Part shown: piece after piece, positions 8,710 through 50,084 of the stretch | Layout of the letters: every line of letters begins with the position of its first letter | Numbering within the stretch: the stretch's first letter is position 1 | Sequence record: NC_019399.1 | Length of the DNA: 64,000 nt | Source: Escherichia phage vB_EcoM_ACG-C40 | Reading direction: 5' to 3' (one strand) | The notes under the pieces: generated by a model | Database searches by the model: none | Told to the model about the DNA's origin: nothing | The model's input: only the letters and a program-made list of their open reading frames with translations | Program-made: the position numbers and the translations under genes

Positions 8710-8758
8710 GTGTTTCTCCTCAAATTTAATTAAGATTATAACACACAAAACTGAAGCA

Positions 8759-9289
8759 TTAAACTTCCGCTATAATTTTTCCATCTTTTTCTACTTGAAA
8801 ATACGTATAAGGAATCGTTGCAGTACATACTAAAGCCGGGTCTGAATCTTCTGTGTAGCTAAATTCTACTTCAGACAGGTCAGAAACCCAAGGCTTATAA
8901 AAATTTATTGACATCACGATTTCAGTTTTGCTATTATCTAAGATGTAAAGCGTAATGTACTCAGGACCTGTTTTTTGGGCAGTATTTTCACCTGTAAGAT
9001 AGTTGCTAGTTCCTAGCATCCATTCATACATTCCTATCCATGACTTAAGTTCTTCATCAACTATAAATCTCACGATGAGTGGATCGTACTCAAATGTAGC
9101 ACCTGGACGTTGTGCTCGGCCCAGTCCAAACGGCCCAGTCACGGTATCAGTAACAGGTATTCTAATTCCTGGAATAGGAACTGACTGAGCATTTAAAGTA
9201 AAAGCAGATGTAGTATTACTATGTGGTATTGATACTACAAAGTTAGTTGTATTTGCTTGGTTAAAAATTTGTTGCAGTGCTTGCGACAT
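8759..9289 (-). CDS. 3: gp3 tail completion / sheath stabiliser
   Basis: Start placed at ATG 9289 (MSQALQQIF...) after GAGGA RBS, giving 176 aa. Confidence 0.8.
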   Translation of the reverse strand: MSQALQQIFNQANTTNFVVSIPHSNTTSAFTLNAQSVPIPGIRIPVTDTVTGPFGLGRAQRPGATFEYDPLIVRFIVDEELKSWIGMYEWMLGTSNYLTGENTAQKTGPEYITLYILDNSKTEIVMSINFYKPWVSDLSEVEFSYTEDSDPALVCTATIPYTYFQVEKDGKIIAEV

Positions 9290-9395
9290 ATATTCCTCAT
9301 AATGCTTTATAACTGTTGGTGGTATAATGGGTCTAAGTCCCTTCCATTCAATTCCATTTAGAACAAACAACAGAAAAGAATGGAAGATAATAGAA

Positions 9396-10220
9396 TTAGA
9401 TATTTGACCAGACTTTGTTTGCAGAGAAACGTTTTCCTTTTGAAACGAACTGCTGAAGTGGCATTAACACAACGTTCGCCCAGTCTTTCGGGGCGATTTC
9501 AACAAGGCTACCCATAATATTACCAGGTATATATGCCTTAATCATTTGGTCTGCACCCCTAAATCCTTTCACTTGACTCCAATCAATTTTTAATTTCGTT
9601 TTATTAGTAATAGTAGGTGTATTTGCATATTGCTTTAAAAGCTCTTCTAGAAACTGTTGACGAGCTTTAGGTGGAATATAGTGCAAGTTTAATCCGTACA
9701 TTAAATTGTGCTTACCTAAACCAAGGTAAATTATCAAAGGAAATTTATCCCAGTAAGGAAGAGTTTCCTTGTGTTTAGCATCATAAGCAAAAGCATATAT
9801 TCGTCCCGGCTGCGGGCGAACAACTTTATGTCCTTTTACTTGCTTAATAGTTTCAGCAAACCATTTTCTAGTTTTATTATTAATTGCTGCGCCTTCATTA
9901 CGAATTTTATCACGCAATGTTTGTCTGAATGAATTTATCATAAGCAGTTGTCTTTCTTGCTTATTGAGTTTATTCATTGGTTTTGATTCAAGCTTTTGAA
10001 TCTTTTCAGCTGTTTTAATTCCTGAAGCATATTTTGACATTGCTGAAGTAAACGTAGAGTATTTAATTCCTCTTTCTTCAGCAAATTGCTTTCCTGTCAT
10101 TCCTTTTGCTTTGGCCTTTTTATATTCAAGACCTATCTGAATCCATTTCTTTTCGTTTAATGATTGCTTAACCTTTGGAACTTGGGGAGTGCTTTCATTA
10201 ATTATTTGAAAAATAGCCAT
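9396..10220 (-). CDS. 2: gp2 DNA end protector
   Basis: 274-aa ORF in the T4 position between 3 and 4. Confidence 0.8.
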
Positions 10221-45617: not shown

Positions 45618-47126
45618 ATGGATATTAAAGTACATTTTCACGACTTCAGTCATGTACGCATCGATTGTGAAGAGAGCACGTTCCACGAATTAAGAGATTT
45701 CTTTTCGTTTGAGGCCGATGGATATAGATTTAACCCTCGCTTCAGATATGGCAACTGGGATGGACGAATTCGTCTTTTAGATTATAATCGCCTTCTTCCA
45801 TTCGGTTTAGTCGGGCAAATTAAAAAGTTCTGCGATAACTTTGGCTATAAAGCCTGGATTGACCCACAGATTAACGAAAAAGAAGAATTATCAAGAAAAG
45901 ATTTTGATGAATGGCTTTCTAAATTAGAAATCTATTCAGGAAATAAAAGAATTGAACCGCATTGGTATCAAAAAGATGCAGTGTTCGAAGGATTAGTTAA
46001 TCGTCGTAGAATTCTTAATCTTCCAACATCCGCAGGTAAATCTTTAATTCAAGCTTTGCTTGCTCGGTATTATTTGGAAAATTATGAAGGCAAAATTCTT
46101 ATTATTGTTCCAACAACTGCTCTGACAACTCAGATGGCTGATGACTTTGTTGACTATCGTTTATTCAGTCATGCAATGATAAAGAAAATCGGTGGTGGAG
46201 CATCAAAAGATGATAAATATAAAAATGATGCACCGGTCGTTGTTGGTACATGGCAAACTGTAGTAAAACAACCGAAAGAATGGTTCTCACAGTTTGGAAT
46301 GATGATGAATGATGAATGTCATCTTGCTACAGGAAAAAGTATTTCATCTATCATATCAGGTTTAAATAACTGCATGTTCAAATTCGGTTTGTCTGGTTCA
46401 TTACGTGATGGCAAAGCCAATATCATGCAGTATGTTGGAATGTTCGGTGAAATATTTAAGCCAGTAACGACCTCTAAATTAATGGAAGATGGACAAGTAA
46501 CTGAGTTAAAAATTAATAGTATTTTTCTTCGCTATCCCGATGAGTTCACTACTAAATTAAAGGGAAAAACTTATCAAGAAGAAATAAAAATTATTACTGG
46601 GCTTAGTAAAAGAAATAAATGGATCGCTAAATTAGCTATTAAGCTTGCGCAAAAAGATGAAAACGCTTTTGTCATGTTTAAACATGTATCGCACGGTAAA
46701 GCTATTTTCGATTTAATTAAAAATGAATACGATAAAGTTTATTACGTATCAGGGGAAGTTGATACCGAAACCCGCAATATAATGAAAACCTTAGCTGAAA
46801 ATGGTAAAGGAATAATTATAGTAGCGAGTTATGGTGTATTTTCTACTGGTATTTCAGTTAAAAATCTGCATCATGTTGTTTTAGCGCACGGTGTTAAATC
46901 TAAAATTATTGTATTGCAAACAATAGGTCGCGTATTACGTAAGCATGGTTCTAAGACAATAGCAACAGTCTGGGACCTCATAGATGACGCGGGCGTGGTT
47001 TCTAAATCAAAAACATCTTCTAAAAAATACTCGCATTTAAACTATCTTTTAAAACATGGACTTGATCGTATTCAGCGTTATGCTGATGAAAAGTTTAATT
47101 ATGTGATGAAAGAGGTTAAACTTTGA
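45618..47126 (+). CDS. uvsW: UvsW DNA/RNA helicase
   Basis: 502 aa; motifs LPTSAGKS and DECH. Confidence 0.9.
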   Translation: MDIKVHFHDFSHVRIDCEESTFHELRDFFSFEADGYRFNPRFRYGNWDGRIRLLDYNRLLPFGLVGQIKKFCDNFGYKAWIDPQINEKEELSRKDFDEWLSKLEIYSGNKRIEPHWYQKDAVFEGLVNRRRILNLPTSAGKSLIQALLARYYLENYEGKILIIVPTTALTTQMADDFVDYRLFSHAMIKKIGGGASKDDKYKNDAPVVVGTWQTVVKQPKEWFSQFGMMMNDECHLATGKSISSIISGLNNCMFKFGLSGSLRDGKANIMQYVGMFGEIFKPVTTSKLMEDGQVTELKINSIFLRYPDEFTTKLKGKTYQEEIKIITGLSKRNKWIAKLAIKLAQKDENAFVMFKHVSHGKAIFDLIKNEYDKVYYVSGEVDTETRNIMKTLAENGKGIIIVASYGVFSTGISVKNLHHVVLAHGVKSKIIVLQTIGRVLRKHGSKTIATVWDLIDDAGVVSKSKTSSKKYSHLNYLLKHGLDRIQRYADEKFNYVMKEVKL

Positions 47127-47815
47127 ATTATAAATTAATATATGATAATTTAATTAATAGAGCCCAGAATCGGGCTCGCCTTAATGGATACACTGAAACT
47201 CATCATATAATTCCTAGATGTATGGGTGGTACAGATGATAGGTGTAATTTAGTAGAACTAACAGCTGAAGAACATTTTATAGCCCATAAACTTTTAGCTA
47301 AAATTCATCCAAATCATTACGGTATAATTAAAGCCGTTATATGTATGGGAATGAACTCAAAGACTCATGAAAGACACGTTAATAAATCTTACGCATGGGA
47401 ACGTCGTAAAATGGCAGAACTTCAATCCGGTGAAGGTAATCCATTTTACGGAAAACACCATACGGAAGAACATAAACAATATATGTCAAAACTCATGAAA
47501 AGTCGTCCAATTACATGGGGAAATAAAATTAGTAAAACTAAAAGAATGAACCCAACAAAATGGACCGAAGAAGCTAAAAGATTACATTCAATCAATCAAT
47601 CGGGTAAAAATAATGGCATGTATGGAAGGAAACATTCCGCTAAATCTATTCAGAAAATTAAAGATAACATGCCAGATAATTCAGGAGCTAATAACCCAGC
47701 TGCTAAACCTATAGAAGTAAATGGTGTTAAATATAAATGTATGAAAGACGCTTCTAAAGCTACTGGATTATCAATGTACAAACTAAGAATACTCAGAAAA
47801 ACAGTTAATTTATAA
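47123..47815 (+). CDS. HNH homing endonuclease with NUMOD-like DNA-binding repeats
   Basis: HNH core THHIIPRCMGGTDDRCNLVELTAEEHFIAH; repeats GNPFYGKHHTEEHK and NNGMYGRKHSAKS; ATGA overlap with the uvsW stop. Confidence 0.8.
   Translation: MNYKLIYDNLINRAQNRARLNGYTETHHIIPRCMGGTDDRCNLVELTAEEHFIAHKLLAKIHPNHYGIIKAVICMGMNSKTHERHVNKSYAWERRKMAELQSGEGNPFYGKHHTEEHKQYMSKLMKSRPITWGNKISKTKRMNPTKWTEEAKRLHSINQSGKNNGMYGRKHSAKSIQKIKDNMPDNSGANNPAAKPIEVNGVKYKCMKDASKATGLSMYKLRILRKTVNL
47123..47815 (+). mobile_element. freestanding homing-endonuclease gene inserted between uvsW and uvsW.1
   Basis: HNH ORF lies exactly between two genes that I recall as adjacent in T4. Confidence 0.55.
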
Positions 47816-47829
47816 GGGCTTCGGCCCTT
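47814..47829 (+). terminator. GC hairpin (AAGGGC-TTCG-GCCCTT) after the HNH gene
   Basis: Tetraloop hairpin immediately before the uvsW.1 RBS; no U-tract. Confidence 0.4.
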
Positions 47830-48071
47830 TGGAGAAAAAGATGTTACTAGAATTTAAACAATTTCTTTATGAAGCTTCTATTGATGAATTTATGGGTAAA
47901 ATTGCCTCTTGTCAAACATTAGAAGGTTTAGAAGAACTTGAAGCTTATTATAAGAAAAGAGTTAAAGAAACTGAATTAAAAGATACTGATGACATCTCAG
48001 TCAGAGATGCTTTGGCAGGAAAAAGAGCTGAATTAGAAGATTCAGACGATGAAGTAGAAGAAAGCTTTTAA
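47829..48071 (+). CDS. uvsW.1: UvsW.1-like small acidic protein
   Basis: 80-aa ORF with GGAG RBS; position and size fit T4 uvsW.1. Confidence 0.7.
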   Translation: MEKKMLLEFKQFLYEASIDEFMGKIASCQTLEGLEELEAYYKKRVKETELKDTDDISVRDALAGKRAELEDSDDEVEESF

Positions 48072-48294: not shown

Positions 48295-48322
48295 GATTGT
48301 CTCCTCTGAATTATATATCTAT

Positions 48323-48547
48323 TTATACAACTCTCATATGCATATCAATGCCCATATCTTTAGAATAAAAATATTCATCAAGATATCCGGCAAATTTTCC
48401 TTTAATATAAAGAACATCTTCACCGCACGGGTGGTCGGCCAGGATACGAATATCCTGACGCTTGAGATTATACTTTTTCATTAAGAATTGAATTTCCGTT
48501 TCGAATTCTTCTTCATAATTAAAAGCATCATCAATGCTATATTTCAT
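48323..48547 (-). CDS. hypothetical protein (74 aa) downstream of uvsY
   Basis: Start overlaps the uvsY stop (ATGA). Confidence 0.6.
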   Translation of the reverse strand: MKYSIDDAFNYEEEFETEIQFLMKKYNLKRQDIRILADHPCGEDVLYIKGKFAGYLDEYFYSKDMGIDMHMRVV

Positions 48548-48960
48548 TATTTTCCAGCCTCAAATGCTCGCATGTCTTGAATATGCTTAATAGCAAATCC
48601 GCGTGATTTAATAGCATCAAGAGCTCCGCTACAGAAATCCAATAAAATCCCCCAATACTGCAACGAGGTATCAACCTTTAAAACATCCTTATCAGCTGAT
48701 AGAACTGTCTTCATTTCTGATTTCTCGTAACGATCCATACTAAATTCATCACCATCTCCTCGTCCCGAGTAGTAGTCTAATTTAGCTTTAAGAGCAACTT
48801 TTTTCTGTGCATCAATTCTAAGCATTTCCTTTTTAATACTTGAATGCTTATTAAGCCATTTACTATATAACATCACATTATTAGCTGCTTCATACTGTAA
48901 TTTAGTCGAATCTATAAACACATCTTTCTTCAATTCTTCTTGAAGATCTTCTAATCTCAT
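48547..48960 (-). CDS. uvsY: UvsY recombination mediator
   Basis: 137 aa; MRLEDLQEELKKDVFIDSTKLQYEAANN... Confidence 0.9.
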   Translation of the reverse strand: MRLEDLQEELKKDVFIDSTKLQYEAANNVMLYSKWLNKHSSIKKEMLRIDAQKKVALKAKLDYYSGRGDGDEFSMDRYEKSEMKTVLSADKDVLKVDTSLQYWGILLDFCSGALDAIKSRGFAIKHIQDMRAFEAGK

Positions 48961-49000
48961 ATTGTTCTCTATTCAATTGTTATTGGATGGACTTAGATTC

Positions 49001-49028
49001 ATTATACCACGTTTATACGTGAAGCATT
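49001..49028 (-). promoter_or_regulatory. T4 middle-type promoter candidate for uvsY (MotA box + -10)
   Basis: Minus strand AATGCTTCA, 13 nt, TATAAT; about 40 nt upstream of the uvsY ATG. Confidence 0.45.
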
Positions 49029-49425
49029 ATACTCTATTACTGGAAGCCAGTTGTAGTTTTATCTGCTCAATATCATCAGGGTTATCGATGACTGAAAAGC
49101 GTATTTCTACTATCAAAGTATAATCATCATAAACCGGTATTACATTAACTGCTAATTTATCAATACGTGGCTCATAGTTTCTTACTGCGCTTTCGATATT
49201 ACGCTCAACCGTGTCAGCAGTAAGAGGAGTCATATTCTCAAAAAGTTGGTCAGATAAATCGCATCCAAATTCAGGGTCAAACGGTCTTGAACCTTTTCTT
49301 GTTGTAATAATTCCTAAAAGACTATTTTTAATTGACCTTAATCCAAGTGATCTTGAAACGTCTTTGTTCCAATCCATTTTCATCTCTGGGTCAATATCAG
49401 AATAAAGCTTATTAATATTTGCCAT
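49027..49425 (-). CDS. 25: gp25 baseplate wedge protein
   Basis: 132 aa. Confidence 0.9.
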   Translation of the reverse strand: MANINKLYSDIDPEMKMDWNKDVSRSLGLRSIKNSLLGIITTRKGSRPFDPEFGCDLSDQLFENMTPLTADTVERNIESAVRNYEPRIDKLAVNVIPVYDDYTLIVEIRFSVIDNPDDIEQIKLQLASSNRV

Positions 49426-50072: not shown

Positions 50073-50080
50073 TATTTATA
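50073..50080 (-). promoter_or_regulatory. late promoter (TATAAATA on minus strand) for genes 26 and 25
   Basis: Plus-strand TATTTATA 22 nt upstream of the gene 26 start; overlaps the plus-strand promoter. Confidence 0.5.
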
Positions 50081-50084
50081 AATA
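50077..50084 (+). promoter_or_regulatory. late promoter (TATAAATA) for gene 51
   Basis: Exact TATAAATA 18 nt upstream of the gene 51 ATG. Confidence 0.55.

Follow-up and report, generated by a model that had tools for sequence, protein, structure and literature searches.

A copy of the T4 middle promoter PuvsY, with a probable oriF-type second role, between gene 25 and uvsY of Escherichia phage vB_EcoM_ACG-C40

Organization of the gene 25/uvsY locus

The window, that is, the whole stretch of 64,000 nucleotides analysed here (Escherichia phage vB_EcoM_ACG-C40, NC_019399.1), was assigned to Tequatrovirus. Over the 2.1 kb round the site, Escherichia phage vB_Eco_OMNI12 is 99.3% identical, and these 2.1 kb are covered at a minimum of 95% identity by about 500 T4-like records. 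The genes, promoter elements and predicted positions at the locus are as follows.

49027..49425, minus strand: gene 25 (baseplate wedge), the upstream late gene; Pfam GPW_gp25
49020..49028, minus strand: MotA box AATGCTTCA, at -34..-26 with the predicted start as +1; it opens with the two A's that also end the gene 25 stop codon
49007..49019, minus strand: spacer CGTATAAACGTGG, 13 nt, ending in TGG (49009..49007), an extended -10 (TGn)
49001..49006, minus strand: sigma-70 -10 element TATAAT, a perfect hexamer at -12..-7
48994, minus strand: predicted transcription start (A), transferred from the mapped T4 PuvsY start 115371
48983..49000, minus strand: discriminator and initial transcribed motif GAATCTAAGTCCATCCAA, kept across genera and common to a few other MotA-type promoters
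48961..48993, minus strand: remainder of the uvsY 5' leader (+2 to +34), with one copy of CCAATAACAA; the full leader is 34 nt from 48994
48970..48967, minus strand: Shine-Dalgarno-like AGAG, seven bases before the uvsY ATG
48547..48960, minus strand: uvsY CDS, 137 aa; Pfam UvsY PF11056, E 4.5e-52
45618..47126, plus strand: uvsW helicase gene, 502 aa, 97.8% identical to T4 UvsW residues 1-502

An earlier sequence-only reading had described a MotA-type promoter at this position, and the sequence, coordinates and distances that it gave (13-nt spacer, 40 nt to the uvsY ATG) proved exact on direct reading. The minus strand here reads ...AGT AAT AGA GTA TAA TGC TTC ACG TAT AAA CGT GGT ATA ATG AAT CTA AGT CC..., in which AATGCTTCA (49028..49020) is followed by the spacer CGTATAAACGTGG (13 nt, 49019..49007) and TATAAT (49006..49001), with 40 nt (49000..48961) between the hexamer and the uvsY ATG (48960). 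The element had been placed inside the 3' end of gene 25, which is wrong: the gene 25 stop codon TAA occupies 49029..49027, its two A's are the sole overlap with the 9-mer, and 26 of the 28 bases of the element are intergenic, within the 66-nt gap between gene 25 and uvsY.

A separate observation was made at the neighbouring uvsW gene. Relative to T4, the window carries a 686-bp insertion (47112-47797, plus strand) exactly between uvsW and uvsW.1, the latter being ORF 47829..48071 (Pfam UvsW-1). The ORF of the insertion (47123..47815) encodes a homing-endonuclease-like protein of 230 aa with two NUMOD3 motifs and an HNH-like HH...N...H segment. At least 80% of the insertion is carried by 47 phage records, and some match was found in 70. 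In the T4 reference record, uvsW and uvsW.1 are annotated as one fused CDS of 587 aa.

Promoter class

T4 PuvsY is a mapped MotA/AsiA-dependent middle promoter with its start at 115371 (PMC2988021, Table 1, where about 58 promoters are listed), and that review (Hinton 2010) credits it to Hinton 1991, Guild 1988, Menkens & Kreuzer 1988 and Gruidl & Mosig 1986. The consensus of the MotA box is given there as (a/t)(a/t)(a/t)TGCTTtA, and TGn precedes the -10 element in about half of T4 middle promoters (PMC2988021). The fit to this consensus claimed by the sequence-only reading was borne out, AATGCTTCA matching it and being identical to the T4 box. In T4, position 115371 is an A seven bases past TATAAT; it corresponds to 48994 in the window, with which the earlier expectation of a start near 48990 is consistent. 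With +1 at 48994, G-31, C-30, T-29 and T-28 fall in the box and TATAAT at -12..-7, exactly the register described where box and -10 element are 13 bp apart (PMC2988021). Two features of T4-type middle promoters were found, a box centred near -30 and a good -10 element at 12 +/- 1 bp from it (perfect TATAAT, 13-bp spacer).

Other classes of promoter were considered and rejected. The site was absent from a -35/-10 scan, and no sigma-70 -35 hexamer was found (at most 2/6 matches to TTGACA at 16-18 nt spacing); a T4 early or host sigma-70 -35/-10 promoter was rejected for want of a TTGACA-like hexamer 16-18 bp before the -10 element. A T4 late (gp55) promoter was likewise rejected, since no late-promoter core TATAAATA occurs between 48961 and 49029, and TATAAACG in the spacer is only a 6/8 match. 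The nearest minus-strand copies of TATAAATA lie at 50073-50080 (before gene 26) and 48320-48327 (before uvsY.-2). In the gap between gene 26 (minus strand) and gene 51 (plus strand), two divergent TATAAATA cores (50073-50080, minus strand, and 50077-50084, plus strand) share four bp.

The frequency of such sites was compared with that in shuffled sequence. In a test that was post hoc, AATGCTTCA-N11-13-TATAAT was counted twice in the window, with 0.00 expected from 100 shuffles. For the consensus taken from the literature, TGCTTYA-N11-13-TATAAT, the count was three with 0.07 expected, and for the looser TGCTTYA-N11-13-TANNNT it was eight with 2.5 expected.

Neither motA nor asiA was found within the 64-kb window by tblastn, as the T4 map predicts, so we infer their presence in this genome from relatives; the nearest, OMNI12, encodes MotA 97.6% and AsiA 100% identical to T4.

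Comparison with T4 and other Tequatrovirus genomes

Alignment of the site with T4 (AF158101) gave 97% column identity over 273 columns. The window and T4 PuvsY share the position in the gene 25/uvsY gap, the 9-bp MotA box, TGG-TATAAT and the 13-bp spacing, and they are identical from -12 to +16, which includes the first 16 transcribed bases. They differ by two adjacent substitutions in the spacer (CGTTAAAACGTGG in T4, CGTATAAACGTGG in the window) and in the leader, which is 44 nt long with two copies of CCAATAACAA in T4, whereas that of the window is 34 nt long with one. The single copy (48975-48984 in the window) was also found in all five environmental Tequatrovirus contigs examined, the tandem pair of T4 being at 115342-115361; judging from these sequences, the duplication appears to be specific to T4 and its closest kin. 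Both spacer variants are present among the environmental contigs (n=5). The spacer also contains an inverted repeat, CACGT-ATAA-ACGTG (49007-49021, minus strand), whose T4 version is CACGTT-AA-AACGTG and which is not kept in other genera.

Two further T4 promoters were compared. Window positions 8735-8760 (minus strand), just upstream of gene 1 (dNMP kinase), correspond to the known T4 P1 (start 75393) and have an identical AATGCTTCA box and TATAAT, but with an 11-nt spacer and without the motif that follows the -10 element of PuvsY. T4 PnrdC.7 shares that motif (TATAATGGTTCTAAGCCC) but has a CGCTTTA box and lies outside the window.

The claim of a MotA-type middle promoter serving uvsY was supported, the element being a positional and sequence ortholog of T4 PuvsY. 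We consider it very likely that it is this phage's copy of that middle promoter, with a probable oriF-type second role. MotA dependence and the exact start site are predicted here from T4 PuvsY.

Conservation in other genera

The gene order 25-uvsY is kept in many T4-like genera. Junctions were extracted from representatives of Mosigvirus, Karamvirus, Dhakavirus, Gaprivervirus, Marfavirus, Klebsiella RCIP0102, Citrobacter Ursula, Acinetobacter Maestro and Serratia PS2. A GCT-containing box was found 18-19 bp before a perfect TATAAT in all of them except PS2, the distance in Maestro being 20 bp. Columns without variation in a nine-sequence alignment were those of GCT in the box, of TATAATG and of a single T close to the start, and the spacer and distal leader varied across the nine genus-level relatives. 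Invariant elements combined with a free spacer are the pattern that would be expected if selection acts on a promoter. The end of gene 25 contains both box and spacer in RCIP0102, where TATAAT overlaps the stop codon; in the Marfavirus representative, the box is within the end of gene 25 and TATAAT lies past the stop. A location inside gene 25 thus holds for those relatives and not for the window. Nolan et al. 2006 (PMC1524935) described MotA-type promoters together with motA for RB69 and 44RR, and did not do so for RB49, RB43 or Aeh1.

Inspection of the junctions also drew attention to gene starts. The annotated uvsY start is too far upstream in LH01, where the ATG is inside the MotA box (T-AATGCTTCA), and it lies inside TATAATG in AnYang and SP18. 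The conserved M-K/R-L-E-D-L start of uvsY is 60-90 nt further down than these annotations, and the promoter locus exposes errors in the uvsY start of three public records.

Proposed expression of uvsY

Sigma appropriation has PuvsY as one of its standard model promoters. In this process, AsiA binds and remodels region 4 of sigma-70, and MotA bridges sigma-70 and the box at -30 (PMC2988021). Sigma appropriation is the most likely mechanism here as well: early in infection, AsiA-remodelled region 4 would be unable to read a -35 element, MotA would bind sigma-70 and the box centred at -30 (49028..49020), and sigma region 2 would read TGG-TATAAT (49009..49001). Transcription would begin at about 48994 and yield a 34-nt unstructured leader followed by uvsY and two small genes downstream of it, uvsY.-1 and uvsY.-2, and synthesis of the recombination mediator UvsY would fall in the middle period, ahead of the late genes. 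A structured RNA or known RNA family in the leader was rejected (the fold z-score of -1.5 was not significant, and Rfam gave no match at E <= 1).

Extended -10 promoters can function without a -35 element. Since TGG directly precedes TATAAT, the site might instead be an ordinary extended -10 promoter of the host type (TGnTATAAT), read by polymerase with unmodified sigma-70, with TGCTTCA incidental and uvsY expressed early and independently of MotA; that TGn occurs in about half of middle promoters (PMC2988021) was also counted in its favour. The GCT core, however, is kept 18-19 bp before TATAAT in eight genus-level representatives from enterobacterial phages (20 bp in Maestro) with the spacer free, the T4 ortholog is listed as MotA-dependent, and TGn itself is not kept in most other genera. 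We regard this explanation as very unlikely, while some MotA-independent initiation could occur by way of the TGn. A further alternative is that most uvsY expression comes from read-through beginning at the late promoter upstream of gene 26 and that the MotA-like site is a chance match without function. A TATAAATA late core is indeed present upstream of gene 26 (50073-50080, minus strand), and no minus-strand terminator was found between gene 25 and uvsY; yet only 0.07 sites of the consensus with TATAAT are expected per window, and this one is orthologous to a mapped promoter and kept across genera, so that we give chance almost no credence. The lack of a minus-strand terminator between the two genes does make late read-through into uvsY plausible in addition to the middle promoter, and such transcription from the late promoter of gene 26 probably contributes to uvsY expression. 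The only hairpin, at 49039-49051, was discarded as a terminator, as its T-run is on the plus strand and it is inside the gene 25 CDS.

Relation to the T4 origin oriF

The sequence-only reading overlooked the T4 role of PuvsY as the core of the replication origin oriF. The T4 record places oriF (ori uvsY) at 115321 with the remark 'primer RNA is same as transcript for gene uvsY'. According to the review of Kreuzer and Brister (PMC3016281), T4 oriF consists of a MotA-dependent promoter and a downstream unwinding element, and the uvsY transcript hybridises to the DNA just downstream to form a persistent R-loop, which is probably cut by RNase H into the leading-strand primer. No particular sequence is required for the R-loop, and heterologous unwinding elements can take the place of the native one; the origin is switched off as middle transcription comes to an end and the late helicase UvsW unwinds the R-loop (PMC3016281).

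In the window, the first ~60-100 bp of uvsY are the counterpart of the R-loop/unwinding-element region of T4 oriF. Orthology extends over the ~100-bp minimal origin, with only 2 spacer substitutions and a 10-nt leader deletion near the origin. By homology with T4, the uvsY transcript would probably double as the R-loop at an origin, and origin function is likely here on the strength of that homology. The window resembles T4 oriF in the promoter half, in the homologous, modestly A+T- and purine-rich downstream DNA and in encoding uvsW nearby; it differs in that the unwinding region is 10 bp shorter and the origin role is putative.

The composition of the downstream DNA was determined as well. 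From +1 to +100 it is 71% A+T against a window mean of 64.4%, ranking at about the 7th percentile among the least stable, and the RNA-like strand is 63% purine. When all middle promoters of T4 were measured in the same way and ranked by A+T, the proven origin promoters PuvsY and P34i came only 18th and 43rd of 60; since they are unremarkable in this respect, composition cannot decide origin function. Duplex stability and purine richness were dropped as discriminators, the signal being weak and the T4 origin promoters not separated.

The locus might be a promoter only, the origin function of T4 oriF having been lost through the shorter leader and unwinding region and the spacer changes. The 10-nt deletion and two spacer changes relative to T4 are compatible with such a loss, as is downstream DNA that is just moderately A+T-rich. 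The single-copy leader is common, however, being present in 5/5 environmental Tequatrovirus contigs, and the T4 duplication is the exception; the T4 R-loop has no sequence requirement and its unwinding element is exchangeable (PMC3016281); and the remainder of the ~100-bp minimal origin is identical to T4. Loss of the origin was accordingly considered unlikely, and a promoter with an oriF-type second role remains the preferred reading.

A motif downstream from the -10 element

PuvsY belongs to a small subset of MotA-type promoters with the initial-transcribed motif TATAATG..TCTAAGTCC.T(T)CC, in full TATAATG[GA]nTCTA[AG]G[TC]CCnT(T)CC. The consensus after the -10 element, TATAATGGTTCTAGGTCCTT, is the sequence kept after TATAAT at the uvsY junction in other genera, and a scan of IMG/VR gave three copies of TATAATGNNTCTARGTCC per Tequatrovirus genome.

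The third match to the strict consensus in the window, at 9303-9328 (plus strand), reads TAATGCTTTATAACTGTTGGTGGTATAATGGGTCTAAGTCCCTTCCATTC and lies in the gap between gene 3 (8759..9289, minus strand) and gene 2 (9396..10220, minus strand), on the opposite strand to both. At 9300-9352 (plus strand) this site reads as a full MotA-type promoter, with TAATGCTTTA, 13 nt, TGG-TATAAT and then GGGTCTAAGTCCCTTCC; its start is predicted at about 9335, and from there it would run antisense into gene 2. The T4 copy (TATAAT at 75988-75993) is identical, and the site is kept in the same orientation in Mosigvirus and Dhakavirus and has GTGGTATAATG..TCTAAGTCC.T(T)CCA in common with the uvsY promoter. A further copy of the module was observed in the srd/modA gap of T4 (AF158101 11860-11910, plus strand), where AAAAATGCTTTAAAACTTTCATGGTATAATGAATCTAAGTCCTTCC runs antisense to modA and stands back-to-back with the early promoter of srd. 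This T4 site, outside the window, has kept its antisense orientation in a distant genus. In other genera the module is also found in sense orientation before rnlB and cd.3, so it is at least a reusable promoter cassette.

The complete T4 genome was assembled and all 58 listed promoters were extracted; the motif is absent from most of them. With a weight matrix restricted to the 18 nt that follow TATAAT, four T4 sites reached 19.8-23.6 bits against a shuffle maximum of 18.1, these four sites being among the seeds of the matrix: PuvsY, PnrdC.7 (53.3 kb), the gene 3/2 gap (start predicted at ~76000, plus strand) and the srd/modA gap (start predicted at ~11897, plus strand). All four are also preceded by a MotA box and TGG-TATAAT, features outside the matrix. 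Neither of the two plus-strand sites (gene 3/2 and srd/modA) was found in the 2010 promoter list, and both are antisense to all their neighbours. When a matrix was built from non-T4 sequences and applied to the 58 T4 promoters, the three highest scores were 15.1 bits for PnrdC.7, 8.5 for PuvsY and 2.2 for P34i, with a median of -10.8; the inclusion of the oriG promoter P34i in this ranking is suggestive, but its score is weak and its resemblance had been noticed beforehand.

Candidate roles of the motif are the tuning of open-complex formation or promoter escape, a feature of the 5' RNA, or R-loop propensity. RNA pairing as its cause was not supported, as no covariation was found in three genera and no partner in the uvsY leader; at the site designated B, 5' CUUCCAUUC does pair with the region round the AUG of an antisense ORF 45 codons long. 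The identification of the site designated C with T4 oriA was also not supported, the annotated oriA being ~5 kb off and in the opposite direction. On the boldest reading of this PuvsY subset, conserved across genera, the motif would mark promoters whose transcripts form primer R-loops, a proposal that we hold to be unlikely.

Implications

The promoter is real, was rightly interpreted and is already known, and nothing about it departs from the known T4 family. For annotation, uvsY can be described as a gene of the middle period whose promoter is defined and whose transcript is predicted to start at 48994. The published T4 dRNA-seq data comprise 150 starts, 22 of them antisense (bioRxiv 10.1101/2024.04.04.588121), and could offer a cheap check on the motif-bearing antisense promoters. 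If the boldest reading of the motif were true, the motif would be a sequence signature common to T4 origins, which was lacking according to the 2010 review. The locus itself is flagged as a probable oriF-type replication origin of this phage.
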